Shown here: positions 7,398 through 34,895 of the stretch, one piece after another
Layout of the letters: every line of letters starts with the position of its first letter
Position numbering within the stretch: the first letter of the stretch is position 1
Source: Clostridia bacterium
Lineage (GTDB): Bacteria > Bacillota > Clostridia > UBA1212
Direction of reading: 5' to 3'
DNA length: 64,000 nt
NCBI GenBank assembly: GCA_017848335.1
Contig: JAGDAX010000046.1
Location: 2,752 to 66,751 of the forward strand
Notes under the pieces: model-generated
Database searches by the model: none
What the model was told of the DNA's origin: nothing
Seen by the model: the letters and a program-made list of their open reading frames with translations, nothing else
Program-made: the position numbers and the translations under genes

Positions 7398-8117
7398 ATG
7401 TCCGTGGATCTGCAGAAAAAGCTTGGATATTATTTCAAAAACGGGGCGCTTCTGAAGGAGGCGCTTCGGCATACGTCATACGCCCACGAAAGATACAAAA
7501 CCGACGCCCATCTGAAGAGCAATGAGAGACTTGAATTTGTGGGCGACGCGGTGGTCGGACTGATAGTCGCGTCGTATCTGTACAAGACGTTTCCGGAGCT
7601 TCCCGAGGGGAACATGTCCAAGATCAGGGCTTCGGTGGTGTGCGAGGAGTCGTTGTCAAAGCTTGCCGAGAAGCTGGGCGTGCCCGGATGCATTAAGCTG
7701 GGCGTCGGTGAATTCCAGTCAGGCGGCAGATTCAAGCCGTCGATCCTGGCGGATGCTGTGGAAAGTATTGTCGCGGCGATATACCTTGACGGCGGATACG
7801 AAACGGCGGAGCGCATAATGCTTCCGTTCTTTGTGGATCTCATTCACGACGCCGGAGCGGAGGCAATTGTTCACAATTACAAATCGAGGCTTCAGGAGTA
7901 TTTGGCGCCGAAGGGGATTCGCCCGGTTTATTCGATAATAAATGAGACCGGGCCCGATCACAACAGGTCTTTCGAGGCTATGGTTACCCTGAAAGGCGCG
8001 GACGACGGCCCTGAGACGATTATTGACGGGTTCTCCGCGACGGGAAGCGGAAGGACCAAAAAGGAAGCTGAGCAGGCTGCGGCGGGGGCGCTTCTTGGTG
8101 CTCTTACCGGGAAATAA
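7398..8117 (+). CDS. rnc: Ribonuclease III
   Basis: RNase III signature NERLEFVGDAV plus a C-terminal dsRBD (GPDHNRSF...GSGRTKKEAEQAAA). The start is taken at the ATG at 7398 (MSVDLQKKLGY). Confidence 0.93.
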   Translation: MSVDLQKKLGYYFKNGALLKEALRHTSYAHERYKTDAHLKSNERLEFVGDAVVGLIVASYLYKTFPELPEGNMSKIRASVVCEESLSKLAEKLGVPGCIKLGVGEFQSGGRFKPSILADAVESIVAAIYLDGGYETAERIMLPFFVDLIHDAGAEAIVHNYKSRLQEYLAPKGIRPVYSIINETGPDHNRSFEAMVTLKGADDGPETIIDGFSATGSGRTKKEAEQAAAGALLGALTGK

Positions 8118-8156
8118 TCTTTCAATACCTTATCCGGCTGTAAAGAGGAGAGCGTT

Positions 8157-8876
8157 ATGATACGTGTTACCGTGTGGAATGAGTTTTATCACGAGAAGGT
8201 CAGCGAGGCCATCGGGCAGATCTATCCCGATGGGATACACGGGGCCATTGCGGGTTTTCTCTCGAAGGACGAGAATTTGTCTGTGAGAACAGTGACCTTT
8301 GATGACCCGGAATACGGCCTTTCCGACGAAGTGCTCGACTCGACGGACGTCCTTATATGGTGGGCTCACGTGCTGCACCATAAGGTTCCCGATGAGGTGG
8401 CGAGGCGTGTTCAGGACAGGGTTCTCAAAGGGATGGGCTTTATTCCGCTTCATTCATCGCACATGTGCAAGCCCTTTCAGATGCTTCTCGGAACGTCCTG
8501 CACGCTGAGATGGCGCGACAATGACCGGGAGAGGCTATGGTGCGTAAATCCCGGGCATCCGATCGCACAGGGCATTGGCGAATATTTTGAGCTGGAACAC
8601 GAAGAGATGTACGGCGAGTTTTTCGATATTCCGGAGCCTGACGAGCTTATTTTCATAGGCTGGTTCAAGGGCGGCGAGGCCTTCAGAAGCGGCTGCACCT
8701 TCAGGCGCGGATACGGCAAAATTTTCTATTTTCAGCCGGGTCACGAGGAATATCCCACGTATTACAACGAGAACGTTCAGAAGGTCATTAAGAATGCCGT
8801 CTACTGGGCGGTGCCCACCAAGGCGAGGGAACGCATAGACGCGCCGTTTATGGAATCTCCCGAGGCCGGAAAATAA
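8157..8876 (+). CDS. ThuA-domain (trehalose-utilisation-like) protein
   Basis: IRVTVWNEF.HEK, YPDGIHGAIA, GMGFIPLHSSH, EEMYGEFFDIPEPD and GKIFYFQPGHEEYP match the ThuA family pattern as I remember it. Confidence 0.8.
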   Translation: MIRVTVWNEFYHEKVSEAIGQIYPDGIHGAIAGFLSKDENLSVRTVTFDDPEYGLSDEVLDSTDVLIWWAHVLHHKVPDEVARRVQDRVLKGMGFIPLHSSHMCKPFQMLLGTSCTLRWRDNDRERLWCVNPGHPIAQGIGEYFELEHEEMYGEFFDIPEPDELIFIGWFKGGEAFRSGCTFRRGYGKIFYFQPGHEEYPTYYNENVQKVIKNAVYWAVPTKARERIDAPFMESPEAGK

Positions 8877-8892
8877 CTGCCGGTGAATAATG

Positions 8893-8997
8893 CCCGCGGA
8901 ACGCTCTTGGCAGATAAGACCGCGGAACGCTCTTGGCAGGTAAGCCCGCGGAACGCTCTTGGCGGATAAGACCGCGGAAGGACGCCGGCAGACAGGC
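8893..8997. repeat. 26-nt tandem repeat CCGCGGAACGCTCTTGGCAGATAAGA, 4 units
   Basis: Read directly, starting 17 nt after the thuA-like stop codon. Confidence 0.85.
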
Positions 8998-9278
8998 CCG
9001 CATTATGATCATACTACTTGGAAATGCCGCTTTTGCGTTGACCGGACGTGCCGGGAATGTCAGGCGGCTTTTTCATAGACCGTTTCGTTAATCGGAAGGC
9101 CGCTGAGGAAGGCCGGGCGCTGCAGGGAGGTAAATTGCAGGCCGTGTTGTCCTCGGCATGGTTCCGTTTTACAGGTCGAGCTGCAGCAGCAGGGCTTTAC
9201 GATAAGGTTTTACGTTTTGAGGTACAAGGTTAAAGTACAAAGGTTAAAGTACAAGGTTGGAGTACAAGGAGAGGATCC

Positions 9279-10622
9279 GTGTCACAGAGCAGGTTTCAAA
9301 ACAGGCAGAAGCTTCTGATAATACCTATATTCGTTCCGCATGCCGGCTGCCCTCACGACTGCTGCTTCTGCAATCAGAAGCTCATCAGCGGCAGCATCCG
9401 GGAGCCAGGGGCGGCGGAAATTGAGAAAACCATAGGAAGCTTCGCAGAGGCGGCAAAAAGGTATGACCGGGTGGAGATTGCTTTCTACGGCGGCAGCTTT
9501 ACCGCGATAGAGGGCGGCAGGCAGGATTTTTATCTTGAAGCTGCGAGTAAATATCTAAAGCGGAACGGCGGCTTTGCGGACTCTTTGAGGGCCTCCACCA
9601 GACCGGATCGTATTGACGGTGAGGTGATTCGGAGACTCAAAAAATACGGGCTTGACGTGGTGGAACTGGGGGCCCAGTCCATGGACGACAACGTGCTGAG
9701 GCTTTCGGGGCGCGGGCACAGGGCTTCCGATACGGAAAGAGCCGCGGCAATGCTCAAGGAGAACGGATTTGTACTGGGTCTTCAGACGATGCAGGGGCTT
9801 CCCGGTGCAGACCGCGAGTCCGACGTTGAGACTGCCGTGAGGATTGCCGGGCTGAGGCCTGATTTCGTGAGAATATATCCCACCGTAGTGGTGAAGCAGA
9901 CGAAGCTTTATGAGGACTATATCCGGGGCGATTATACGCCCTTGTCGGTTGAGGACGCGGTGGCGCTGGTTTCGAGGCTTTGCGGGATCTACAGAAGCAG
10001 CGGTATTCCTGTTGCCAGAATCGGCCTTCAGTCGACGGACACGATCTCGAGAGAGGGCGCGGGGACTGAGATTGCTGCGGGGCCGTATCACGAAGCCTTC
10101 GGGCAGCTGGTGACGTCATACGACGTCAGGCGTGCCGTGAAGAGCGCCGTGGATCATATCCGGGAGGATTATATCAATATGAACGAACGCCGCAAGCTTT
10201 GTGTGAAGCGGCTTTACGTGGTTGTGCCGCCGGAGCGGGTTTCGGACGCGACGGGGCAAAGGCGGTCAAACGCGGAAACAATGGCCCGTGAATGCGGTGC
10301 GGAGCGTGTGACTGTGCTGTCGAAGGACAGCTTCGACGCGGACTTCAGGCGGCTTCCCGGGCAGGCGACCGAGGCGTCGGCCTATGCGGAAGCGGCCGCT
10401 GTGAAGGTGCTGCGTTGCGGCCGCGGGGCTCCTGCAGAAAACAAGCCTGAGGCGCCTGAGAAGTTTGGAGCGCTTGAGGCGCTTGAACCATTTGAGGCGC
10501 CTGAGAAGTCTGGAGCGCTTGAGGCGCCTAAACCGTTTGAGGCGCATAAGACGCGTGAGACGCCTGAGACGCCCGGGGAAATGCTGCCTGTGGCTGTCAG
10601 CGTGAGAATGCGGTTTAATTAA
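9279..10622 (+). CDS. Radical SAM protein (ELP3-like N-terminal radical-SAM domain) with a repeat-derived C-terminal tail
   Basis: GTG start. IPIFVPHAGCPHDCCFCNQ carries the CxxxCxxC cluster. The tail PEAPEKFGALEALEPFEAPEKSGALEAPKPFEA is encoded by a DNA tandem repeat at about 10437-10600. Confidence 0.75.
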   Translation: MSQSRFQNRQKLLIIPIFVPHAGCPHDCCFCNQKLISGSIREPGAAEIEKTIGSFAEAAKRYDRVEIAFYGGSFTAIEGGRQDFYLEAASKYLKRNGGFADSLRASTRPDRIDGEVIRRLKKYGLDVVELGAQSMDDNVLRLSGRGHRASDTERAAAMLKENGFVLGLQTMQGLPGADRESDVETAVRIAGLRPDFVRIYPTVVVKQTKLYEDYIRGDYTPLSVEDAVALVSRLCGIYRSSGIPVARIGLQSTDTISREGAGTEIAAGPYHEAFGQLVTSYDVRRAVKSAVDHIREDYINMNERRKLCVKRLYVVVPPERVSDATGQRRSNAETMARECGAERVTVLSKDSFDADFRRLPGQATEASAYAEAAAVKVLRCGRGAPAENKPEAPEKFGALEALEPFEAPEKSGALEAPKPFEAHKTRETPETPGEMLPVAVSVRMRFN

Positions 10623-10672
10623 AAGCTGATTGCACTGCAACGAAACTCGCCTTGCCCGTACTGCAGCACAAG

Positions 10673-10728
10673 CTTTGATTACATTGCAATGACTGCTTTG
10701 ATTACATTGCAATGACTGCTTTGATCAC
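10673..10728. repeat. 23-nt tandem repeat CTTTGATTACATTGCAATGACTG, about 2.4 units
   Basis: Read directly. Overlaps the comEA stop codon region. Confidence 0.8.
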
Positions 10729-11486
10729 ACCGTAATGTAGGCCTTGATCTCGTTGTATCTGGCGGCTTTGATGCCGCTGACGTTCATTATTTCGGTAATA
10801 GACGAGAAGGGGCCGTTTTCGGTGCGGTAGCTGACAATCTTGAGGGCGGTGCTTTCGCCGATGCCCGGCAGAGTACAGAGCTCGCTGACTGAGGCGGTGT
10901 TGATATTGACGAGCCCGGAGCCCTGTGGATCGCGGGTGCCGGAGGAGCCGGAGGGCCCGGAAAGGCCTGCGTCGATGATCCATTTTTTGTCTGTATCGTC
11001 AATATACGGGACCCGAATCATCATTCCGCTCTCAAGGGTAAAGGCGAGGTTTACGGCTTCGCGGTCCGCATTTTCGCTGAGCCCGCCTGCGGCTGCGACC
11101 AGATCGTTTAGGATCGAGCCCGCCGGGATCTCGTAGACGTCGGATTTTTCGACAGCGCCGACAATATAGACCACAATCATATCACTTGGCGTATCGTTCC
11201 CGTCGGTCGGAGCTTCCTCCTGAGCAGGCGTTTCTGAGGGTCCGGGGGTTCCGGCTTTAAAAGGCGATCCGGAAGCGGATGCGGAAGTGTTCGCGGACCC
11301 GGGTGTGATTCTGCCGCTGCCTGTTTTTTTCTCGAAAAGATACCCCCCGACAATAAGAACGGCTGCGACAAAAACGATCAAAACGTATTTCACAAAAACC
11401 GGCACGTAAAACGTTCTGCCGAACAACCTGAATCTCACTGAATGTCTGCCCCCTTTCGCACTGTGTCTGAGGAAAAGCCGGTTCAC
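10725..11486 (-). CDS. comEA: Competence protein ComEA (SLBB plus helix-hairpin-helix DNA-binding domain)
   Basis: N-terminal TM helix. The C-terminus LVNINTASVSELCTLPGIGESTALKIVSYRTENGPFSSITEIMNVSGI is a classic ComEA HhH. Confidence 0.85.
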   Translation of the reverse strand: MNRLFLRHSAKGGRHSVRFRLFGRTFYVPVFVKYVLIVFVAAVLIVGGYLFEKKTGSGRITPGSANTSASASGSPFKAGTPGPSETPAQEEAPTDGNDTPSDMIVVYIVGAVEKSDVYEIPAGSILNDLVAAAGGLSENADREAVNLAFTLESGMMIRVPYIDDTDKKWIIDAGLSGPSGSSGTRDPQGSGLVNINTASVSELCTLPGIGESTALKIVSYRTENGPFSSITEIMNVSGIKAARYNEIKAYITV

Positions 11487-11777
11487 GAAGCGTTTTCCGT
11501 GTGTTCCCGGCGTACGCCGCTGTTAAGCTCCCGGCAGCCGCTGTATTTCCCGGAAAACGCAAGGTCGCTCTGCGAACCCACAAGCACCGGCCGCCGCCGT
11601 AAATTCCGGGAGACGCCGAACAGCTTGCACCGGCCGCCGTATTTCCCGGCAGCCTCCGCAGAAGTGATGGTATTTCATTTTCCGGACCGCGTCAACAGCG
11701 GGAAATATTATCGCGCAAAAGGCAACGGGCGACGCGCGGGGATCATTGCCTGCCGGTTGAGAGGCCGCGTTTGCTTC

Positions 11778-11938
11778 GTGAGGATCCATAAAGTGACTCA
11801 GTGAGGATCCATAAAGCGGCTTCGTGAGGATCCATAAAGCGGCTCCGTGAGGATCCATAAAGCGGCTTCGTGAGGATCCATAAAGCGGCTTCGTGAGGAT
11901 CCATAAAGCGGCTCCATGAAGAGCCATAAAGTCCCAGG
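11778..11938. repeat. 23-nt tandem repeat GTGAGGATCCATAAAGCGGCTYC, 7 units
   Basis: Unit boundaries read directly at 11778, 11801, 11824, 11847, 11870, 11893 and 11916. The first and last units are the most diverged. Confidence 0.9.
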
Positions 11939-12083
11939 AGACAGCCCCGTGAAGCACTGTAAAGCTGATTAATGAAGTTGTGCAATAAAGCTCGGGGAAG
12001 CGGCTCCGACAAGGCTCAAATTGTGTATCAGATTACCCTTCACGACCGCTCCGATTCCGCCCCGGGCATGCTTCGAAAAAAGG

Positions 12084-12112
12084 TTGAAATCCGGACAAAA
12101 AAGCATTAAAAT
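12084..12112 (+). promoter_or_regulatory. Sigma-70-type promoter of the solute-binding protein gene
   Basis: TTGAAA (12084-12089), a 17-nt spacer, then TAAAAT (12107-12112). Confidence 0.5.
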
Positions 12113-12166
12113 ATGGGCACGATTTGTGGCATTTTTGCGCAAAGAAATCAGAGGAGAATGCTTATG

Positions 12167-13546
12167 AAATCCAAATTGACACTTACAATAAAAATGATAT
12201 TTGCGGTGATGGCGGTCGCCATGTTCTTCAGCCTTGTCGGATGTGACGAAAGGGTCTACGTGGACGGCACGCTCGAAGAGGGCTACGTGCCGGACGTCAG
12301 GGGCAAAATCAAGGTTACGTGCAGAACCGACGTGTACCCCAATGAGTCTTCACGCAAAGCGGTCCGCAGCTGGATCAGCTCTTTCAGGAACAAGTACCCG
12401 GACGTGAATATCGAGACGGACTTCTCCGTGCCGGATTATGCCCCGTTGATTTCCTCAAAGACTATCGGCGACGTGTTCTGGCTGAGTGACGCGGACGTGT
12501 ACAACTACGCAATCACGATGCAGGCGCTGATGCCGCTGGATTCGTACATAGAGGCGATGGATATCGACACCGCGGACATTTACTCGGGTATTCTGAATCT
12601 CTGCGAGGTGAAGGGCAAGATGTACTTCGCGGGAGCGACCTGCGGAAACGTTATATTTACGTACAACGTTGACGCGATGGTCGAGGCGGGACTTCTTGAG
12701 CCGGGTGAGAGAGTTGCCAACGACTGGACCTGGGATGATTTCAAGAGGTATGCCGAGGCGCTCAAGAGATATGACGAGGACGGCGTAACGCTGACTCAGG
12801 TGGGCGCGGGCTTCCCGCTTTACTGGCCCAATACGTTCTCTCCCTTCCTTTACGCTTTCAGCGATGACTGGGTCGATAAGACCTCGAATAAGGTCACGTT
12901 CACAAGCCCGCAGGTCATTCAGGGCATCAATCTTGTGATCGAGGCGCTGGACAACCGCTGGATCTACCCCGAAGGAACCGCTATGGGAGGCCAGATGCTT
13001 GGCGAGTACGGCAAGGTCAGCACCAAGAGCGGATGCGTTTTTGCCTATAACCAGGCATATACGGTGCTTACGCAGAACGCTGACCATTACAATTCCAAAG
13101 GCATTACGTGGGATCTGGCGCCCTGGCCGCTTTTCGAGAAGAAGGCTTCCCCCTGCGGAACGCTCGGATTCGGCGTTTTCAGTTACACCCGCAACAGGGA
13201 TGCCGCTGCGGCGCTGGTGCTGTCGCTTTACACCGAGGACGGTCAGAGGGCTATGCATGAGCAGGAAGGCGGAGACGTGCCTGTGCTCAAGAAGCTCGGC
13301 GAGATGGACTTCTGGCACCTCAATAAGGAAGGCTACGAAGGCAAGAACTATGATGCTTTTACCGCCAATTATGAGCGGTACGTTCCGGGGCAGGTGAACG
13401 CCAGTGTTCCGCCGGAGGTGGCGACCATTATTGAGGCGGGCATCAAGTCGCTCTTTGACGACTATTGCAAGAACGCTATCGACTGGACCGACAGGCTCAG
13501 ACAGATAGAAGAAAGGTGCAACCAGACGTGGGAAACACTCAGTTAA
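12167..13546 (+). CDS. ABC transporter extracellular solute-binding lipoprotein (carbohydrate type)
   Basis: Signal peptide with lipobox FFSLVGC. Its size and composition fit a family-1 sugar SBP. The start is chosen at the ATG 7-8 nt after GGAG. No permease or ATPase gene is adjacent. Confidence 0.8.
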   Translation, partial: KSKLTLTIKMIFAVMAVAMFFSLVGCDERVYVDGTLEEGYVPDVRGKIKVTCRTDVYPNESSRKAVRSWISSFRNKYPDVNIETDFSVPDYAPLISSKTIGDVFWLSDADVYNYAITMQALMPLDSYIEAMDIDTADIYSGILNLCEVKGKMYFAGATCGNVIFTYNVDAMVEAGLLEPGERVANDWTWDDFKRYAEALKRYDEDGVTLTQVGAGFPLYWPNTFSPFLYAFSDDWVDKTSNKVTFTSPQVIQGINLVIEALDNRWIYPEGTAMGGQMLGEYGKVSTKSGCVFAYNQAYTVLTQNADHYNSKGITWDLAPWPLFEKKASPCGTLGFGVFSYTRNRDAAAALVLSLYTEDGQRAMHEQEGGDVPVLKKLGEMDFWHLNKEGYEGKNYDAFTANYERYVPGQVNASVPPEVATIIEAGIKSLFDDYCKNAIDWTDRLRQIEERCNQTWETLS

Positions 13547-24508: not shown

Positions 24509-24596
24509 AAAATCTCCTTTTCGCGTTTTATTTGAGATCGCGGCCGCGGCGCCGATGTGCTGCCGGCGTTGAAGTCTCCGGCGTCGATCATCAGGG

Positions 24597-24700
24597 CGTT
24601 GATCTTGTCCGGCGGTGATTGTCCGGCGGTGCTTGTCCGGCGTTGATTGTTCCGGCGGTGCTTGTCCGGCCTTGTCCGGCGTTGATTGTTCCGGCGTTGA
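24597..24700. repeat. 13-14-nt tandem repeat TTGTCCGGCGGTGM, about 8 degenerate units
   Basis: Read directly upstream of tldD, at the GC-rich edge of the AT-rich island. Confidence 0.8.
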
Positions 24701-24913
24701 CCTCTGATGAATATATACTATTTTTTGGCCGCGGAATCAAGGCGGTCTTTGCGGTCTGTTTAGAGAAAATATCTCCAAATATGCGTCTGAAATAGTGCTC
24801 GCGGGCAATTTGCTTATGGATTTGATGCGCAAAAAGCTGATTATGCGTGTCTTTCGCTACTCGTCTTTGGCCGCCTTGGCAACGGCTCAAATAAAGCTTT
24901 GGAGAATGCCGCT

Positions 24914-24996
24914 TCAACGCATCCAACGCATCCAACGCAATGTTAACGCAGATCAAGCGTTGGGACAACGCATTCCAACGCGTTTAATGCGTTGGA
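24914..24996. repeat. Cluster of seven NCAACGCR octamers (5 direct, 2 inverted) including the hairpin TCCAACGC-gtttaat-GCGTTGGA
   Basis: Direct copies at 24914, 24923, 24932, 24943, 24965 and 24975. Inverted copies at 24957 and 24989. Confidence 0.8.
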
Positions 24997-25177
24997 TTCG
25001 AAGCTTTCTGTAAGCAAAGATTCTTTCCACGTGGATTTCCATTTTGATCCTCTTTTGACCCACTGGACAGAATGAAACACTGTAAAACCGTCCCCAAGAG
25101 TAGAAAGCAGATCGTACACAAGAATCTCTGCAAATGGAACATCGGATAGGTCTTCTTTGGATGGATATTTGAGCCAT
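24953..25177 (-). CDS. Hypothetical 74-aa basic Cys-containing protein, possibly translationally coupled to the helicase
   Basis: Its ATG overlaps the helicase stop codon (TAATG), and AAAGGAG lies 10 nt upstream inside the helicase 3' end. The ORF's 3' third is encoded by the CAACGC repeat cluster, which lowers confidence. An alternative 52-66-aa ORF in another frame (24984..25184) encodes one TM helix. Confidence 0.25.
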   Translation of the reverse strand: MAQISIQRRPIRCSICRDSCVRSAFYSWGRFYSVSFCPVGQKRIKMEIHVERIFAYRKLRIQRIKRVGMRCPNA

Positions 25178-28100
25178 TATTCAAGATCTCCTTTTATTGC
25201 TTCATAATCTATATCATAGATTCTGTACGCATGCCAACCTTTCCGCTTAAAATACTCCAAGGTTCCATTCGTTGTATCCTGTTGGCATATCAATGTATCT
25301 TTAGTCGGCCAGGACATCAAGATATCCTTACCTTCATCTGAATGCTTTATGCTGGTTTCCAAATACTCTGGGATTGGAATCTGGATAGCCGCAAGTTTTG
25401 AAAGGATTGAATGATCTCCCTCATCGAAGAAAGATTCCAGTTCTGTCCAATGATGATACATGTTCGTTGGGTAAGAATGCTCTTTGTCTATTAATTTGTT
25501 CATCCTTGCCTGTTTTTGTGAGGGCTCTTCAATACCTGAAAGAACATCATAGCCGAGAAAATAGTCTTCGATATAGTTCCATCGTTCCTCGTCCCCTTTC
25601 AGATTATTGAAGAACCTCAATAATACCGCCACATCTCTATCGTGTTTCTGTTTTGCTTTCGTCACATAATTATTTGAATAAACGGTATTGCCAAGAACAA
25701 TACTTTTGACCTTATTGGGATCGTTTAGACGAATAAAGATCTCAGGCTCTTCCCCTCCAGCCACCTCATATGTAATGTAATCAAAGATCGAAAGGAGTTT
25801 CAGAGCTGTATTTGAATTATCATCAGATGTCAAACTGATGAATCCTTCGTATGATGCCGCATCATGAATCCTTGCAATATTCTGCATGATATTTGAGCGG
25901 ATGATTGGTCTCCTCATAAACTCTTTGAAGTTGCCATTTGAGAGCGAATGGACTGTTTTTCCCGATGTGTCACCCGTACGATGTTTAACACAACGTGAAT
26001 CAGGATCTACTAGATCAAAAAGCGAGTTCGCAATAATCCTAGCCTTTGTAATGCCATATTTCTCACGAATAACTTTTGTAAATTCTTCTGTCGTAAAGAA
26101 TTGCCGCTTAAACTCAGTGTAAAGCGTATTGGCTATGAATTCAAAATCTTGAAGTATTAATTCTCTTAGTTCAGATAGAAGCATTTCACCCCTGGCTTCA
26201 ATTGTAATCTTTTGACGCGGAGCAATTTTATGCCTAACAGAAGGCATAATGTCCACTTTGTCCGGTGATTGGGAGTTTGCATTAAAAAACCAGTACTTGA
26301 ACTGTGGGAATGAAATGTTGGGATGGAACTCCTCCCAAATGCTTTTGAGATCTAATGTGTATACGTCTCCATTGTCACTCAACAAGCTTCCGTCGGGTTG
26401 TTTTTCCCGATACCTTCCTTTGGATACGAATCTCATGTATTTACCGTACTCAGATGATAGTACCTCGCTTTCACTCTCTTTATTAATACAAATAAATGCT
26501 TTTGTGAAAACACTCTGTGGGCGAGAGATTAAAACTTTAAAATTGTATTTGTCGTAAAAGTCTTTCTCAAGCATTAAGAGGCAAGTCTTGAGCTTGCTAA
26601 TGCAGTCACCCTCATTTTTTCCGTTGAAAATATAAGTAAATGCTTCTGGAGAGATAAGAAAGCTGCGTTCACCTTTTTTGCTTTTGTATGTATCATAAAT
26701 TCCTTCGAGGACTTTTTTTATCTGATACTGTCTTATTTGAGACATGCCAAATAAAACCTTCATAAAAGTCATATCGTTAAAGAAAAAATCAGTAACGGCA
26801 TTTCCTTCCATTGAAGATTTACGAGCAGCTCTTCCTATTTCCTGAACATAGTCCGATAGATTTCCGCTGACAGCATAGTGGTATACGTTCTTGACATCAT
26901 TTACATCTACACCCATACCAAACGCTTTTGTGGCAAGCATTATCGGAGTTGTACCTTTTCTAAAGCTTTCAAACGTTTGCCGCTTCACCTCGTTGAAGGC
27001 CTTGTTGCTCAAATCATCAATATTTCTTCCTGTATATGTTCCTATACGTTTATCGGTTGTGATACCTGCAAATCCCTGCATACCCCTAGACGCATCCCGA
27101 GCCAGGGAAGCATACGGGAAATACACTATCGTTTTTTCATCATTTTTCAGCCAATGCTGTATTCTTTTATCTAGTGCCTGGCATTTGGCTGATTCATATT
27201 CTGGTTTTGGAAGCTTCTGCCCAGTGCCTGGGTGGGTTATCTCAAATTTGACATCATCCCTTCTAACATAACCCAGATATTTAATTGGGTTCTCCATATA
27301 AAGACTTATGATGGTATCACTGACAGAGTCGTCCACGCCTCCGTTGATTGCTGTCGCTGTAAATGCACAGATCGGGAAATGATATACTTTCTGCTTCATC
27401 CCTTTGCTTGTTTGAACACGATTTCTCAATCTGTTAAGATAGCCACCAAGGTACCAATAGTCAGGTCTGAAGCCTACGCCCCACGTCGTAACTATATGAG
27501 CCTCGTCAACGATGATAAGACCAATCTCTCTCTCTCCAATAATAGTTTCGATCGAATACGACAAGAGTGTTTCCGGACTTAGATAAAGAAGATCTACATC
27601 GCCATGCTTAATTCTTTCTAGTACCGCCTCTTTTTCCACTTGAGTAATCAAATCAGAATTAAACGCTTCAACGCGCATATATCCTGATTTGTTAAGCTTT
27701 TCTTTTTGATCCTGCATCAGAGCTTTAACCGGCTCAATGATTATTGTAAGCTTATTGTATTTTTGTGCCAAATACACGGCGGGAATTTGAAACATCAAAG
27801 ATTTTCCTGCCCCAGTAGATGCAGTAATGAATATATCCCGGTAACTATCACCACGAGCATAGTTATACGCATTTTCCGCTTGTCGAATAATCTCATGGAT
27901 GATCTCAGACTGGGATATATCAACGACCTCTTTATTAATATCAGGGCTCTTGTAAAACTTTATTTTCCTGAACTCCTCGAATCCATTAATTCTGATAATA
28001 TCCTTAGCAATCGCTTTTAACTCAGAGTCTAGGCTTTTGTATTCAGGTTTTCTTTCCAGGTATTCAATTAATCTAATTCCATGAAACAAGCAATATGCCT

Positions 28101-28761
28101 GTAACGTTTTTTGTACTCTTTTGGACAGTTCGCCGTTTGTGGATTTTATGCTGATAATGCTCGGTTTTATTCGAATAATGCTCGTAAGATCGCGAAGATA
28201 GGTGTCGATATCTTCATTCAAAAATACATCGTATTGACTTTGAACAGTAGTTTTCTCGATTTCGCAATTCTGTGGATAGTAATCTTTTACAATCACGCCG
28301 TCATCCCGATAATACTCATAATTGTAGAATCCCCCATAGAGAGTACCATCCGCATCAACCAAAGAGTTATATATTGCGAGATAACTCTGGCAAGCAGAAC
28401 TTTGTACAGCGTTTCTATCGCCATTAATGGTCTCGATTATCTCCCTAGATATCTCAGAACTAATGTCGAACTCGATTGGATAATACTCTGGATAAAGATT
28501 ATTCCTAAAGATGACAACCTCAAGCTCATCTTCCGTGATTGCATCATCAATTCTATTTTTAATCAGTGAGTATTCCTCATAGGTCAACCAAGATACATCG
28601 TCCTCGTCTAGAGAAAGAAGTGCAATATCAAGTTTCTTGCGAATATCTTTATCATAGAGCAACACATTCTTTTTCTGGGAAACAGGTATGTTTAATAGAG
28701 GTCGCTGTTCTAGCGCACATAAAAAAGCCTCATCAAATCCCTTATATACTTCTATCCTCAT
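25177..28761 (-). CDS. RecQ-family SF2 DNA helicase, atypical 1194-aa architecture
   Basis: Motif I ASTGAGKSLMFQIPA (aa about 315), motif Ia TIIIEPVKALMQDQ, motif II IIVDEAHIVTTWGVGFRPDY (aa about 417-435), and motif III FTATA. Motif V is ATKAFGMGVDVNDVKNVYHY and motif VI YVQEIGRAARK (aa about 638-648). GGAGGTG RBS. About 300 aa at the N-terminus and about 545 aa at the C-terminus are unassigned. Confidence 0.9.
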   Translation of the reverse strand: MRIEVYKGFDEAFLCALEQRPLLNIPVSQKKNVLLYDKDIRKKLDIALLSLDEDDVSWLTYEEYSLIKNRIDDAITEDELEVVIFRNNLYPEYYPIEFDISSEISREIIETINGDRNAVQSSACQSYLAIYNSLVDADGTLYGGFYNYEYYRDDGVIVKDYYPQNCEIEKTTVQSQYDVFLNEDIDTYLRDLTSIIRIKPSIISIKSTNGELSKRVQKTLQAYCLFHGIRLIEYLERKPEYKSLDSELKAIAKDIIRINGFEEFRKIKFYKSPDINKEVVDISQSEIIHEIIRQAENAYNYARGDSYRDIFITASTGAGKSLMFQIPAVYLAQKYNKLTIIIEPVKALMQDQKEKLNKSGYMRVEAFNSDLITQVEKEAVLERIKHGDVDLLYLSPETLLSYSIETIIGEREIGLIIVDEAHIVTTWGVGFRPDYWYLGGYLNRLRNRVQTSKGMKQKVYHFPICAFTATAINGGVDDSVSDTIISLYMENPIKYLGYVRRDDVKFEITHPGTGQKLPKPEYESAKCQALDKRIQHWLKNDEKTIVYFPYASLARDASRGMQGFAGITTDKRIGTYTGRNIDDLSNKAFNEVKRQTFESFRKGTTPIMLATKAFGMGVDVNDVKNVYHYAVSGNLSDYVQEIGRAARKSSMEGNAVTDFFFNDMTFMKVLFGMSQIRQYQIKKVLEGIYDTYKSKKGERSFLISPEAFTYIFNGKNEGDCISKLKTCLLMLEKDFYDKYNFKVLISRPQSVFTKAFICINKESESEVLSSEYGKYMRFVSKGRYREKQPDGSLLSDNGDVYTLDLKSIWEEFHPNISFPQFKYWFFNANSQSPDKVDIMPSVRHKIAPRQKITIEARGEMLLSELRELILQDFEFIANTLYTEFKRQFFTTEEFTKVIREKYGITKARIIANSLFDLVDPDSRCVKHRTGDTSGKTVHSLSNGNFKEFMRRPIIRSNIMQNIARIHDAASYEGFISLTSDDNSNTALKLLSIFDYITYEVAGGEEPEIFIRLNDPNKVKSIVLGNTVYSNNYVTKAKQKHDRDVAVLLRFFNNLKGDEERWNYIEDYFLGYDVLSGIEEPSQKQARMNKLIDKEHSYPTNMYHHWTELESFFDEGDHSILSKLAAIQIPIPEYLETSIKHSDEGKDILMSWPTKDTLICQQDTTNGTLEYFKRKGWHAYRIYDIDYEAIKGDLE

Positions 28762-29085
28762 ATTGCACCTCCATATTTCTCTTGCTAAAAAGAATAATAA
28801 CGTGTTTGCACATTTATAGCTATCATATTTATATGAGTTTTTTTCTGATTATCTTCAGTTCACCGTTGATATAGCATATCGTTTTAAATTATACGGTAAT
28901 TATCTTTCAAATAACTCCCTGGAGGGTGAAGGAACGTCCATAAGCGCCCTGAGAAAATCTGAGAGGAACGTTCTGTTTTTCTGGACATTAAGCGGTTTTC
29001 GAGCTTTCGATCTCGCGAAATCATGAGGGATTTTTTCTAAAAGAAGTATCCTGAAACAGGCCCAAAATGCTGCTTATTTGCTGCA

Positions 29086-29359: not shown

Positions 29360-29627
29360 TATGAATCCCCCGAACTGTTGCGTGATTTGCAACGGTTCCG
29401 GGCCCAATCCGGGCCGGTATTTTCGAAGCTTTAACACAGAGCGTTAAGACTTAACAAAGAGCTCGAAGCTTTAACACAGAACTCTATGCTATAACACGGT
29501 TTAACAGGGAAAGCCCCGTAACAATGACGGAACCCCTTGTTCAAATGAAAAAACAAGACAGAAAAGGCAAGCAGACAAGACAAAAAGGCAAGAAAACAAG
29601 ACAGTAAGCAAAACGACAAAGCAAGAC

Positions 29628-30820: not shown

Positions 30821-31504
30821 TCAAGACATAAAAATTTGATCCATTTTGGCGTCGTGAGGCAAAACCGCCACTGACGGCAGTACCAGCTCGCTGAAGCAGA
30901 CTCCGCAGACGCTTTCAAAGTGAGAACGGTGCTCCGAAAGGTATTTGTCGAAGAATCCCTTGCCGCGCCCGAGGCGGTTTCCTCCTGAGTCAAATGCCAA
31001 ACCGGGGCAGAGAAGGACGCTGCGTTCCGGGATATTTTCCGCCCGTGGAAATACGGATGCGTCGGGCTCGCGTGTGCCGTAGGCGCCGGAATTGAAGCCC
31101 TTGCCCGAGAATAATTCGCGCGAACGGAACTTTCCCGTGAACTCTGCCACGTATTCCGGGGAGCTCATATCAGGCACCGGGAACCCGCGGTTCAGGCAGC
31201 TTTCGTTCGAGCCTTCGATTGCGGCTGTCACGTCGCAGAAGAACATTTCCCCGGTCTCTTCGCACACGGGAAGAAAAACGTGCCGCCCCAAAGCCACCGC
31301 AGCCGAAAAAAGCGCATAAAGCTCCGGCTCGCCCCTGATGGCCGAATACGCGAAAATATTTTCCGCCGTTTTGAATTCGCGGGAATTGAATATGCTGCAG
31401 ACGATTCCGGCGGATTTCCCGGCAAGCTCCGACGGATCAAGCCCGTCAATAATGCTCTTGGCGTACCGGCGCTGGGCCTTCTTCAGTGCGATGTGTTTTT
31501 CCAT
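30821..31504 (-). CDS. 5-formyltetrahydrofolate cyclo-ligase
   Basis: GLAFDSGGNRLGRGKGFFDKYL motif. The start is chosen at MEKHIALKKAQRR (31504). It carries an internal extension relative to typical members. Confidence 0.8.
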   Translation of the reverse strand: MEKHIALKKAQRRYAKSIIDGLDPSELAGKSAGIVCSIFNSREFKTAENIFAYSAIRGEPELYALFSAAVALGRHVFLPVCEETGEMFFCDVTAAIEGSNESCLNRGFPVPDMSSPEYVAEFTGKFRSRELFSGKGFNSGAYGTREPDASVFPRAENIPERSVLLCPGLAFDSGGNRLGRGKGFFDKYLSEHRSHFESVCGVCFSELVLPSVAVLPHDAKMDQIFMS

Positions 31505-31603
31505 TGCTGCAACCTTTTTTGATAACTTATCTGATAGCGCTTCGCCTCTTGATCCGCATACCGGCAGGCAACCCAAAGGCCGCGGCGTCCGGACTCACAA
31601 CCG

Positions 31604-31737
31604 CCCGGACGCAGCGCTCAAAGCTCAGAGCCGTCTCAAAGCTCAGCGCCGCGCCTCAGAACTTACCGCCGGGCCCAAAAGCCCGGCCCGGACGCCGCGC
31701 TCAAAGCTCAGAGCCGTCTCAAGGCTCAGCACCGCGC
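31604..31737. repeat. Two copies of a ~51-nt unit (CCCGGACGCMGCGCTCAAAGCTCAGAGCCGTCTCAARGCTCAGCRCCGCGC) separated by 32 nt
   Basis: Copies at 31604-31654 and 31687-31737. The second copy overlaps the last ileS codons. Confidence 0.85.
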
Positions 31738-34700
31738 GATCGAGATCGTGGTGTTCTCGCCGTTTATGTCCCACTCCCTGGTGGACCCGCCGGGGATGAC
31801 CGCGTCCGCGAAGCCGTCGCACAGCACGTCGTGAGCGATTTCCGCGGCATGCGCCTTCACAGCCTCGGCCACCGTGGCCGTGCCGCCGATGAACACGTTG
31901 ACGTGGTCGGTGACGTCGAAGCCCGCGTCCTTGCGCATGGTCTGGATCTTGCTGATGATCTCGCGGCAGTAGCCCTCGGAGATGAGCTCAGGCGTGAGGT
32001 TGGTGTCGATGGCCACCGCGAAGCCGGGCTCGGAGGCGGAGGCGTAGCCGCTGACCTTGCCCACGTCGATGAGAAGGTCCTCCGTGAGCAGCTCGACGGG
32101 CCCCGACGGAAGGTTCAGCACCAGCTTGCCGGTCTCGTCCAGCTCCTTCTTGGCGGCGTTGCCGTCGACGGAGGCGAGGGCGGGCCGTATCTCGCCCAGA
32201 AGCTTCCCGAACTTGGGCCCCACGGTCTTGAGCTGGGGCTTGAAGGTGTACGTGGAAAATCTGGACATGTCCGCCGTGAATTCCACGTTCCGGATGTTGA
32301 GCTCGTCCTCGATTATCGCCTTGAATTCGCCGGTGAGGGGACTTGGCGCGGAGACGTACATTACCGAAAGAGGCTGCCTGTTCTTGATGGCGGCGTCGTT
32401 TCTGCAGGCTCTGCCCAGGGCCACTATCTTGAGGACCTCTTCCATGGAGGCCTCAAGGCCGCTGTCGATGAGGCTCTCGTCCGCGGCGGGATAATCGCAC
32501 AGGTGGACGCTCTCGGGTGCGGACGCGTCAATATTTACCACGAGGTTCCGGTAGATCTCCTCGGTCATGAACGGGATCATGGGCGCGGCAAGCTTGCTGA
32601 CGGTCACCAGGGCGGTGTAGAGCGTCATGTAGGCGTTTATCTTGTCCTCCGTGAGGTTCTTGCCCCAGAAGCGCTCGCGGCTCCTGCGGACGTACCAGTT
32701 GCTCATTTCGTCCACGAAATCCTGCAGGCACCTGGCAGCTTCGGTGATGTGATATTCCCCGAGGTTGCCGTCGGTCTCCTTGATGACCGTGTTGAGCTTG
32801 GAGAGCAGCCACCTGTCCATGCTGCCCAGCTTCGCGGGGTCGAGCCTGTACTTCGTGGGGTCGAACTCGTCGATGCCCGCGTAAAGCACGTAGAACGCGT
32901 AGGTGTTCCAGAGGGTGCCCAGGAATTTGCGCTGGCCTTCATTCACGGCCTCGAAGTAGAACTTGTTGGGCAGCCAGGGCGCGCTGTTCTCGTAGAAGTA
33001 CCACCTCACCGCGTCGGCGCCGTGATCCTCGAGGGCCTTGAAGGGATCCACCGCGTTGCCCTTGGATTTGCTCATCTTCTGGCCGAACTCGTCGAGCACG
33101 AGCCCCAGCACCACCACGTTCTTGTAGGGCGCCTTGTCGAACAGCAGCGTCGAAATGGCCAGCAGCGAATAGAACCAGCCGCGTGTCTGGTCCACGGCCT
33201 CCGAAATGAAGTCAGCGGGGAAATTCTCGTTGAAGATATCCTGATTCTCGAAGGGGTAGTGCCACTGCGCGAAGGGCATTGCGCCCGAATCGAACCAGCA
33301 GTCGATGACCTCCGGGACCCTCTTCATGGTGCCGCCGCAGTCGGGGCACTTCACGGTCACCGCGTCAATGTACGGCCTGTGAAGCTCTATGTCGTCGGGG
33401 CAGTTGTCGGAAAGCTTTTTGAGCTCGTCAATGGAACCCACCGAGATCCGGCTGCCGCAGGAGCACTCCCAGATGTTGAGAGGCGTTCCCCAATAACGGT
33501 TGCGGCTGACGCCCCAGTCCTGAACGTTTTCGAGCCAGCTGCCGAAGCGGCCCTTGCCGATGCCCTCGGGGATCCAGTTGACGGTGTTGTTGTTGGCGAT
33601 GAGCCTGTCGCGGACGGCGGTCATCTTGATGAACCAGGAGTCGCGGGCGTAGTAAATAAGCGGCGTGTCGCAGCGCCAGCAGAAGGGGTAGCTGTGCTCG
33701 AATTTGAGCTTTTTAAAGAGCAGACCGCGTGAACGGAGCTCGTCCATAATGAGCGGATCCGCATTCTTGCAGAAGGTGCCCGCCCAGGGAGTCTCCTCCG
33801 TCATTTCGCCCTTTGCGTTGACGAGCTGCACGAAGGGGAGTCCGTACTTTTTGCCCACGTTGCTGTCGTCCTCGCCGAAGGCGGGAGCAATGTGAACCAC
33901 GCCGGTGCCGTCCGTGAGCGTGACGTAATTGTCGCACACGATATAGAATGCCTTTTCGTTTGCGTTCAGCTTCGCGAACGGGAAGAGCGGCTCGTATTCC
34001 TTGTATTCGAGGTCGCGGCCGGTGTACTTCGCGAGAATTTCAACGTCCCCGCCAAGCACAGCGGGCACCAGCGCCTCCGCCATATAGTAGGTGTCTTCGC
34101 CGGATTTTACCTTAACGTAGGTCTCGGCCGGGTTGACGCACAGCGCCACGTTTGAGGGCAGCGTCCAGGGTGTGGTGGTCCAGGCCAGCACGTAGGCGTC
34201 CTCGTCCTTCACCTTGAACTTCGCGATAACACTTGTCTCCTTCACGTCCTTGTAGCCCTGGGCGACCTCGTGGGAAGACAGGGGCGTTCCGCAACGGGGG
34301 CAGTAGGGAACTATCTTGTAGCCTTTGTAGAGGAGGCCCTTGTCCCAGATCTGCTTGAGCGCCCACCACTCGGACTCGATGAAGTCGTTGTGATAGGTCA
34401 CGTAGGGATCGTCCATGTCCGCCCAGAATCCGACGGTGGATGAGAAGTCCTCCCACATGCCCTTGTATTTCCAGACGCTCTCCTTGCACTTGTCGATGAA
34501 GGGCTCGAGCCCGTAGGCCTCGATCTGCTCCTTCCCGTCAAGACCCAGCTCCTTTTCGACCTCGAGCTCCACGGGAAGACCGTGGGTGTCCCAGCCGGCC
34601 TTGCGGAGGACCTTGTATCCCTTCATGGTCTTGTAGCGGGGGATCATGTCCTTTATGACGCGCGTCAATACGTGCCCGATGTGGGGCTTGCCGTTGGCCG

Positions 34701-34845
34701 TCGGCGGGCCGTCGTAAAACGTACAGACCGGCTTGCCTTCGCGGTTTTCGATGCTCTTCTCGAAAATGCCGTTGTCCTTCCAGAACTTTTCGATGGCCTT
34801 CTCGCGGTCCACGAAGCTAAGGTTCGACGAAACTTTTTTGTACAT
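31726..34845 (-). CDS. ileS: Isoleucine--tRNA ligase
   Basis: HIGH motif (PTANGKPHIGH), KMSKS motif (QKMSKSKGN), a CP1 editing domain and a zinc-ribbon-like CPRCGT. The start is taken at MYKKVSSNLSF (34845) after GAGGTGA. Confidence 0.97.
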   Translation of the reverse strand: MYKKVSSNLSFVDREKAIEKFWKDNGIFEKSIENREGKPVCTFYDGPPTANGKPHIGHVLTRVIKDMIPRYKTMKGYKVLRKAGWDTHGLPVELEVEKELGLDGKEQIEAYGLEPFIDKCKESVWKYKGMWEDFSSTVGFWADMDDPYVTYHNDFIESEWWALKQIWDKGLLYKGYKIVPYCPRCGTPLSSHEVAQGYKDVKETSVIAKFKVKDEDAYVLAWTTTPWTLPSNVALCVNPAETYVKVKSGEDTYYMAEALVPAVLGGDVEILAKYTGRDLEYKEYEPLFPFAKLNANEKAFYIVCDNYVTLTDGTGVVHIAPAFGEDDSNVGKKYGLPFVQLVNAKGEMTEETPWAGTFCKNADPLIMDELRSRGLLFKKLKFEHSYPFCWRCDTPLIYYARDSWFIKMTAVRDRLIANNNTVNWIPEGIGKGRFGSWLENVQDWGVSRNRYWGTPLNIWECSCGSRISVGSIDELKKLSDNCPDDIELHRPYIDAVTVKCPDCGGTMKRVPEVIDCWFDSGAMPFAQWHYPFENQDIFNENFPADFISEAVDQTRGWFYSLLAISTLLFDKAPYKNVVVLGLVLDEFGQKMSKSKGNAVDPFKALEDHGADAVRWYFYENSAPWLPNKFYFEAVNEGQRKFLGTLWNTYAFYVLYAGIDEFDPTKYRLDPAKLGSMDRWLLSKLNTVIKETDGNLGEYHITEAARCLQDFVDEMSNWYVRRSRERFWGKNLTEDKINAYMTLYTALVTVSKLAAPMIPFMTEEIYRNLVVNIDASAPESVHLCDYPAADESLIDSGLEASMEEVLKIVALGRACRNDAAIKNRQPLSVMYVSAPSPLTGEFKAIIEDELNIRNVEFTADMSRFSTYTFKPQLKTVGPKFGKLLGEIRPALASVDGNAAKKELDETGKLVLNLPSGPVELLTEDLLIDVGKVSGYASASEPGFAVAIDTNLTPELISEGYCREIISKIQTMRKDAGFDVTDHVNVFIGGTATVAEAVKAHAAEIAHDVLCDGFADAVIPGGSTREWDINGENTTISIARC

Positions 34846-34895
34846 TCTTTTCACCTCTGAATAATATGAATCCATATATATAATATGAACGAAAA

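Follow-up and report, generated by a model that had tools for sequence, protein, structure and literature searches.

A gene for a RecQ-like superfamily 2 (SF2) helicase of 1194 amino acids lies on the minus strand, at 25177..28761, of a 64,000-nucleotide stretch of Clostridia bacterium DNA (contig JAGDAX010000046.1), which is called the window throughout. It is an intact, uninterrupted open reading frame (ORF) of 1194 codons with an ATG start, read and translated directly from the window, and Pfam and PADLOC matches assign it to the long form of the C3a193 family. More than 120 full-length homologues share 65–100% identity with the protein. In homologous loci, the helicase gene is directly followed, after a gap of 0–2 nt, by a gene for a ~575-aa protein that joins a NERD nuclease to a superfamily 1 (SF1) helicase. 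As judged from gene order and spacing, the long-form family is a translationally coupled two-gene cassette. The window copy is likely the surviving half, that is an incomplete copy, of this mobile RecQ-like/NERD-SF1 cassette, which we regard with fair confidence as a candidate anti-phage or anti-plasmid module.

Pairing of the helicase with a NERD-SF1 partner

Loci carrying homologues of the helicase were collected from representative genomes (29), from metagenomes by family alignment (80) and, for the others, by exact-protein look-ups; they and their proteins are referred to by L and P numbers, respectively. ORFs were called and neighbours scored, and the tally that follows covers loci with the window-type C-terminal end and readable downstream DNA. 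As sampling started from the helicase, the tally carries an ascertainment bias. The partner is intact and separated from the helicase by 0–2 nt in 38 loci, which represent ~30 distinct arrangements. Its ORF is split in three loci (L012, L050 and L058) and there is no partner in 11 loci from six lineages: the window lineage, L017, L043/44, L045/46, L061 and L066. Overall, ~80% of the lineages with the long-form architecture keep the coupled partner. When the search was instead started from the partner, the helicase was found upstream in 12 of 12 contexts among those listed. A reading of the window made from sequence only (the sequence-only reading) had proposed a stand-alone, single-gene system; both the 38 loci and a partner remnant in the window, described below, speak against this.

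The partner is recognized by its Pfam matches (SLFN-g3/DUF2075, AAA_19/AAA_30 and UvrD_C_2), with a Pfam match to NERD itself in one protein, P0492. The nuclease residues D55, E69 and K71 (PD-(D/E)xK), the Walker A sequence GTGKT, DExQD and the later SF1 motifs are conserved in 36 distinct partners. Among PADLOC models, RTasNERD-Hel matches over the full length (E = 1e-48) and C3a187, labelled “NERD+UvrD”, matches with E = 3e-14.

At the window locus, the partner is present as a NERD + SF1 helicase pseudogene of which the first ~54 codons remain (25019..25177, minus strand), as found by tblastn and by direct reading. Its ATG at 25177 overlaps the stop codon of the helicase, which is the usual arrangement. 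After four codons (MAQI), a loss of 2 bp in an ATATAT run shifts the frame, and the shifted frame encodes partner residues 5–54 at 25019-25168 with 62–94% identity in tblastn (E = 4e-17 to 3e-24), the highest identity (94%, E = 3e-24) being to the partner of the closest relative. Protein and DNA similarity ends at 25019-25022, just before the conserved NERD aspartate D55. The deletion removes ~520 partner codons, and with them the entire nuclease active site and the SF1 motor. The locus retains the helicase with its ribosome-binding site; at the DNA level, it is similar to the closest relative, L039 (80% identity), only between 28782, a point 21 nt 5' of the start codon, and 25022. Since this remnant is in the window, the pair is the ancestral state. 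The decayed DUF2075-type gene that had been noticed beside the helicase is therefore real; it is, however, the cognate operon partner and not an unrelated casualty, and its state is due mainly to truncation and less to mutational decay. As to membership of an intact cassette, the window helicase has the C-terminal domain of the paired forms, and the locus lacks an intact, coupled NERD-SF1 gene. The locus is not to be counted as a functional defence system and is the wrong copy for a trial.

Two further loci show that the helicase gene also decays, though this is seen less often. In L031 (8001-16506), the helicase is broken after codon ~951 by an insert of ~5 kb and there is no partner. In L062 (7077-9962), the helicase ORF is split into parts of 670 and 254 aa and the partner is intact.

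Helicase core, flanking regions and length forms

The RecQ-type helicase core comprises residues 306–650 (26812..27846, minus strand) and is defined by Pfam, NCBIfam and PDB matches and by alignment. The only Pfam matches in the protein are DEAD (residues 306–472, E = 4e-23) and Helicase_C (residues 526–648, E = 7e-17). The motifs that had been quoted as intact are all present: Walker A (G317, G319, K320 and S321), DEAH (419–422), FTATA (467–471), FGMG (614–617) and QEIGRAAR with R644 and R647. In an alignment of 34 homologues, these residues are nearly all invariant or ≥90% conserved. DEAH is followed by an aromatic-rich loop, W427-G428-x-x-F431-R432-P433-D434-Y435, which is invariant in the same 34 proteins.

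One explanation for such a gene is a housekeeping RecQ. The window helicase and canonical RecQ share the SF2 core, the aromatic-rich loop and the arginine finger, and the best PDB sequence matches are bacterial RecQ, RECQL5, RECQ1, WRN and BLM, with the likeness confined to the core (RecQ family E = 1e-27). The protein is also named “ATP-dependent DNA helicase RecQ” in a public NCBI record (P0001, which is the window protein). However, the scores fall far below the family cutoffs: 159.6 bits against 640.2 for the NCBIfam recQ equivalog TIGR01389, 128.4 against 1015 for NF008279 and 149.6 against 219.8 for the recQ_fam subfamily. The canonical C-terminal modules are lacking, as had been claimed. 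The four-cysteine zinc cluster was not found, cysteines after motif VI being limited to positions 720, 727, 758, 924 and 1159 (of which the first three are the only ones in residues 650–900), and neither RQC nor HRDC gives a Pfam match in the helicase at E≤1. Instead, the protein has an additional 300 aa at its N-terminus and 545 aa at its C-terminus, and it is horizontally mobile. Further evidence against a housekeeping gene comes from its GC content of 38% in a genome of 57–60% and from its homologues, which occupy unrelated loci in different genera. In addition, the nearest species-level relative, as judged by TldD (the closest distinct homologue, 80% identity), has a different synteny, with MatE upstream and no helicase at this site. 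A housekeeping role is thus close to being dismissed, in line with the earlier judgement that this is not a normal recQ. The RecQ name is doubtful because the score is a quarter of the NCBIfam recQ cutoff; it is probably an over-annotation that is spreading through records of metagenome-assembled genomes.

The two thirds of the protein that flank the core had been described as uncharacterised, and this is borne out by Pfam, by profile searches of the PDB and by Foldseek, none of which gave a relative. Pfam has no family for the N-terminal ~300 aa or the C-terminal ~545 aa, and hidden Markov model (HMM) profiles of the flanks had no match among PDB sequences. AlphaFold2 models were built for residues 1–305 and 655–1194 from alignments of 18 homologues. 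The N-terminal region, residues 1–300 (27862..28761, minus strand), is conserved across the wider family and is predicted to consist of two alpha/beta domains (residues ~1–110 and ~120–235) followed by a disordered linker; its model has a predicted local distance difference test (pLDDT) score of 83.4 and a predicted template modelling score of 0.71. Foldseek returned nothing at E<0.001 for either model in the PDB, or for the N-terminal model in BFVD. The best N-terminal matches, with E = 0.048 in the PDB and E = 0.006 in BFVD, are weak Rossmann/RecA-like folds, and they include shikimate dehydrogenase, RECQL5, KaiC and phage helicases.

The family-specific C-terminal region, residues 651–1084 (25510..26811, minus strand), is delimited by the C3a193 profile, by a profile search and by the AlphaFold2 model, and it ends in a conserved ERWxYIExYFLG motif. 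The model of residues 655–1194 is of moderate quality (pLDDT 68.6); it starts with a number of small units of alpha/beta or helix-strand type, which are followed by a disordered segment (residues ~1024–1083) and a well-predicted terminal block (pLDDT 81–91). Weak winged-helix matches to this model (5aim and 1xma, E>0.5) suggest that residues 651–1084 probably include winged-helix-like elements. Together, the flanks amount to ~850 aa of conserved helicase sequence without a structural relative, which could bring to light a new mode by which invader DNA is sensed.

The terminal block, residues 1085–1194 (25180..25509, minus strand), is referred to as the C-terminal domain (CTD) and is found with the forms that have a NERD-SF1 partner only. 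A profile of residues 655–1194 was searched against 1.84 billion representative proteins (50% clustering) and gave 537 matches at E≤1e-3 and 219 at E≤1e-30. These relatives fall into three length classes. Short forms of ~1050–1100 aa end at the conserved ERWDxIExYFLG, which is also the end of the C3a193 profile, and those ending before the CTD include L016, L023, P0129 and P0140. Long forms of ~1190–1230 aa have the last ~110 aa of the window protein, and a third group of ~1220–1260 aa has a different extension. Only long forms, among them the distant L071, L072, L095 and L105, are followed by the NERD-SF1 partner, and none of ~32 short-form loci has it downstream. The CTD of the window helicase aligns over its full length with that of paired homologues and is about as conserved as the rest of the protein. 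This pattern suggests that the CTD may serve as an adaptor or docking module for the NERD-SF1 partner. Three CTD sequences gave no Pfam match at E≤1. A by-eye likeness to a DUF559/Vsr-like nuclease fold, with the acidic residues replaced, was considered; Pfam returned nothing for it at E≤1 and it is a lead only. The CTD and the alternative extensions of P0180 and P0193 share the pattern W-P-x-K-x-x-L-(I/L)...D...G-W-x-x-(Y/F)-(R/L)-I.

Short forms have other neighbours. In 16 loci (L077, L084, L091, L092, L107, L108, L109, L112, L113, L114, L115, L116, L118, L119, L123 and L125), a protein of ~370 aa with sigma-70 r2/r4 regions is encoded directly upstream of the helicase (~1060–1110 aa), and it aligns with the C-terminal half of the MzaA model of PADLOC (E = 3e-30). 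Such pairs often adjoin type I restriction–modification (R-M) genes, and a 655-aa SF1 helicase is encoded two genes upstream in four loci. On the Enterococcus faecium plasmid pW142 (L133, 5035-9478), the sigma-like and helicase genes overlap and lie beside type I R-M. The sigma-like gene and short-form helicase thus resemble a second candidate system, with the helicase core in common. In L016, the short form is adjoined by a UvrD + PD-(D/E)xK protein and a small exonuclease-like gene. On the mobilizable plasmid pCXA of Exiguobacterium aurantiacum (L132, 984-5162), the short form, named “DEAD/DEAH box helicase”, is followed by an HNH endonuclease. BrxA and type I R-M genes are near other short-form loci, and some short-form relatives are without an obvious adjoining nuclease. 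It is possible, if somewhat doubtful, that C3a193 helicases are the sensor-helicase hub of unrecognised modular defence systems of Bacillota, in which exchangeable C-terminal extensions would couple a ~1070-aa core, including the two N-terminal alpha/beta domains, to partners such as the NERD-SF1, HNH, UvrD + PD-(D/E)xK and sigma-70-like proteins, and orphans like that of the window might act alone. Such partner swapping, tied to a swappable C-terminal domain, is a natural experiment in the wiring of defence modules.

Candidate defence role and rival explanations

For the intact cassette, we consider it fairly likely that the two proteins form a helicase-sensor and nuclease-effector module against phage or plasmid. 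The RecQ-like subunit would load onto single-stranded DNA, or onto branched replication and recombination intermediates of the invader, and would translocate at the expense of ATP. The aromatic-rich loop would couple DNA binding to ATP hydrolysis, as in RecQ, and the novel N- and C-terminal domains may gate the activity, either by setting specificity or by holding the helicase in check. The CTD would then recruit or license the NERD-SF1 partner, which would unwind and cut the DNA. At the window locus the effector is gone, and what remains is most likely an orphaned sensor or translocase, which would be a recent relic or retain residual activity of its own.

The defence case for the cassette is circumstantial but consistent, and it comes in part from the genomic contexts of homologues. 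Neighbour families were tallied by Pfam, the PADLOC matches of the same neighbours being filled by redundant GajB models. The 133 neighbour proteins of 33 long-form loci matched 160 Pfam families, with no conserved third gene; a small HTH_17 gene upstream of the helicase in L005 is likewise not conserved. Recurrent neighbours are AAA_21/AAA_15, UvrD and DEAD helicases, resolvase/recombinase, DpnII with a methylase, RhuM and SLFN_AlbA_2, and WYL, GIY-YIG and DpnI are also seen. An 89%-identical homologue, that of the closest relative L039 (intact pair at 8001-13309), is flanked on one side by two GmrSD genes, a WYL protein and a Zn-ribbon UvrD, and on the other by Macro-NADAR, a dynamin-like GTPase and an FtsK/HerA-like ATPase. 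The proposal of a role in defence or against mobile genetic elements (MGEs) is thus plausible from contexts such as GmrSD, DpnII, type I R-M, BREX and prophage ends; what is not supported is that it would be exerted by a single gene.

Helicase and nuclease pairs are known from named systems. Hachiman consists of the nuclease HamA (DUF1837) and the SF2 helicase HamB, and Gabija consists of the nuclease GajA and the UvrD helicase GajB. Both are two-gene modules that occur in defence islands, with a helicase that senses the state of the DNA and keeps the nuclease under control. The cassette appears to share this helicase-plus-nuclease, two-gene logic. It differs in that its helicase is RecQ-like and not Ski2-like or UvrD, and in that its NERD nuclease is fused to a second helicase. 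Models of HamA, HamB and GajA are absent from the 25 best PADLOC matches of the helicase and the 15 of the partner, and GajB matches to the partner are marginal. Nhi and AbiO resemble the partner in having an N-terminal PD-(D/E)xK-type nuclease followed by an SF1 helicase; the PADLOC matches (Nhi 4e-10; AbiO 9e-10 to 7e-13) are, however, weak and limited to the helicase part, and the partner is coupled to a larger SF2 helicase and is deleted in the window.

The closest defence-annotated RecQ-like cores in PADLOC are DpdF (E = 1e-50) and PsyrT (E = 3e-40), with the likeness confined to residues ~308–670. The DpdF model NF041063 scores 131 against a cutoff of 550, and no dpd genes adjoin the helicase, whose neighbours in the window are rpsI and tldD/pmbA. 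The HMM of PsyrT, the toxin of PsyrTA/RqlHI, covers residues 311–651 only (profile positions 41–338 of 689), and no PsyrA-like gene was seen beside any surveyed homologue. The window helicase is therefore outside canonical RecQ, DpdF, PsyrTA and Hachiman, and it does not show the CRISPR association behind the C3a193 label. A named system matching the helicase/NERD-SF1 pair was not found in the open-access literature.

The C3a193 label points to a further explanation, namely an accessory of type III CRISPR-Cas or an alternative Cas3. The PADLOC model PDLC01089, “C3a193 - poss. alt. Cas3”, matches residues 53–1072 of the helicase over profile positions 50–982 of 983 (E = 5e-164); the profile stops before the last ~120 aa, and the window helicase is thus a longer form, extended by one C-terminal domain. 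The label derives from one row of a table by Shah et al. (2018, RNA Biol, PMC6546367) on genes that neighbour type III CRISPR, where cluster 193 has three members, with Thebr_0949 as representative, beside type III-B/D cassettes, and the row carries no further comment. In favour of a CRISPR role, the match is full length, the partner matches C3a187 from the same screen, and both C3a193 and C3a187 are placed beside type III cassettes in that table (PMC6546367). Against it, a spaced-repeat scan found no CRISPR-like array in 131 related loci (up to ±10 kb each), in one distant TldD-homologue locus or in the 64-kb window, Cas families are not among the commonest neighbour families in the Pfam and PADLOC tallies, and the label is based on three members. 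A CRISPR function is therefore very improbable. The earlier statement that the architecture could not be matched to a known named system holds as far as validated systems are concerned, none of which fits; through the full-length match to C3a193, a computational label of 2018, a named family is matched in a weak sense only. Neither “ATP-dependent DNA helicase RecQ” nor “poss. alt. Cas3” is supported as a name for the family.

The helicase could also serve a mobile element in its own replication, recombination or counter-defence. Its foreign composition is consistent with this, as are relatives on plasmids and the homologue on a single viral contig in IMG/VR. In L043/L044 (5019-13374), there is an intact helicase with no partner remnant, and the element around it encodes a tyrosine integrase, HTH_17, a rolling-circle Rep (REP_ORF2-G2P) and a resolvase, along with WYL/Tpt1/FtsH-like cargo. 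In L142–L145 (1-13719), an intact cassette comes right after an SPP1-type portal gene at a prophage end, and further on there is a ~1587-aa DEAD/Helicase_C + UvrD fusion, then SNF2/MTES_1575 helicases; L056 shares this neighbour of ~1590 aa. Most loci, however, have no integrase, Rep or phage genes within 8–10 kb, and the bare cassette moves between unrelated chromosomal sites, where the two-gene unit was found in Lachnospiraceae, Oscillospiraceae, Ruminococcus, Eubacterium, Veillonellales and others. The IMG/VR homologue is the one match in 2.9 million viral contigs, and 50,697 GenBank phage records hold none above 30% identity, with distant core matches only. In addition, pairing with an Nhi/AbiO-type NERD nuclease-helicase is typical of defence. 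Taken together, service to a mobile element is improbable.

A last explanation is that the helicase suffices by itself, as a single gene, for defence or for action against MGEs; it might strip proteins from the DNA of an invader or unwind it, and the NERD-SF1 protein would be an optional addition. The helicase is intact without its partner in the window lineage, L017, L043/44, L045/46, L061 and L066, and from their nearest relatives these six losses were judged to be independent. The conservation of the CTD in the window helicase and the short-form relatives that lack an adjoining nuclease also speak for this explanation. On the other side, about four of every five lineages of the same architecture have retained the coupled partner, the 1194 aa hold no detectable effector domain (nuclease, NADase, transmembrane or similar), the window remnant shows that the pair is ancestral, and loss of the toxic nuclease first is the expected route of decay. 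The orphan pattern is explained equally well if a potentially toxic nuclease was lost and the helicase simply survived. Self-sufficiency is accordingly unlikely as the explanation of the family, and the chance that the helicase alone still gives a phenotype is small, although the intact orphans in six lineages mean that it should not be neglected.

Several points weigh against the cassette as we interpret it. The six independent lineages with an intact helicase and no partner suggest that the helicase may work alone. The ratio of nonsynonymous to synonymous substitution (dN/dS) is 0.02 for the window gene against its closest relative, with dS saturated at 2.9, which makes it silent on selection after the loss of the partner. 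Neighbourhoods are heterogeneous and many neighbours are housekeeping genes, so that the defence-island signal is suggestive rather than overwhelming. The docking role put forward for the CTD is based on co-occurrence and on the 0–2 nt spacing of the genes. Finally, no experimental report on the family was found in the open-access literature or in PADLOC, Pfam and NCBIfam annotations.

If the intact cassette protects against phages or plasmids, it would be a new two-helicase system, in which a RecQ-like SF2 helicase is joined by a fusion of NERD nuclease and SF1 helicase. The cassette occurs widely in Bacillota of the gut and rumen, and it is common in human-gut and rumen members, in which few defence systems have been tried. 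With this distribution, ~850 aa of novel sequence and a modular exchange of partners, the family is a reasonable candidate for experiment.

The island and its surroundings

The helicase gene lies in an AT-rich island, as previously noted: GC content is 0.33–0.44 over ~25000-29000 and 0.55–0.61 in both flanks. The description of this island as a defence hot spot is not upheld. It is a 4-kb insert between rpsI and tldD/pmbA in which other defence genes were not found, and no tRNA, integrase or further defence gene adjoins it in the window. Rfam and tRNA scans of the flanks were empty, and a promoter and terminator scan gave sites that were not above the level of shuffled sequence. DNA homology to relatives is confined to 25022-28782, and this boundary, together with the GC contrast, shows that the helicase segment is of foreign origin. 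A protein identical to the window helicase is encoded on six metagenomic contigs with the gene order of the window, which is ileS, 5-formyltetrahydrofolate cyclo-ligase, rplM, rpsI, helicase and two copies of tldD/pmbA. An insertion-free allele of the site was not found in an empty-site comparison made through the closest TldD homologue.

The island begins with an AT-rich 5' leader (28762..29000, minus strand), in which only 28762-28782, the 21 nt of the ribosome-binding region, are homologous to L039. At its other end, a repeat-rich spacer of intermediate GC content (24509..25018) extends from the truncation point of the partner to tldD/pmbA; cassette homology was not found in it.

A 748-aa ORF (31486-33732, plus strand) runs antisense to ileS (31726-34875, minus strand) and has a translation rich in Arg, Gly and Ala; it resembles the shadow ORFs that commonly arise in GC-rich coding DNA, rather than a gene. 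Short tandem repeats occur in non-coding DNA on both sides of the insert, at 24595-24700 and 24915-24939, which are within the spacer, and at 29423-29604. They include a GC-rich array of 14/29/39-nt units upstream of tldD and 2.8 copies of the 9-nt unit CAACGCATC, and the rpsI terminator is followed by a 20-nt array and a T/G-rich 21-nt array.

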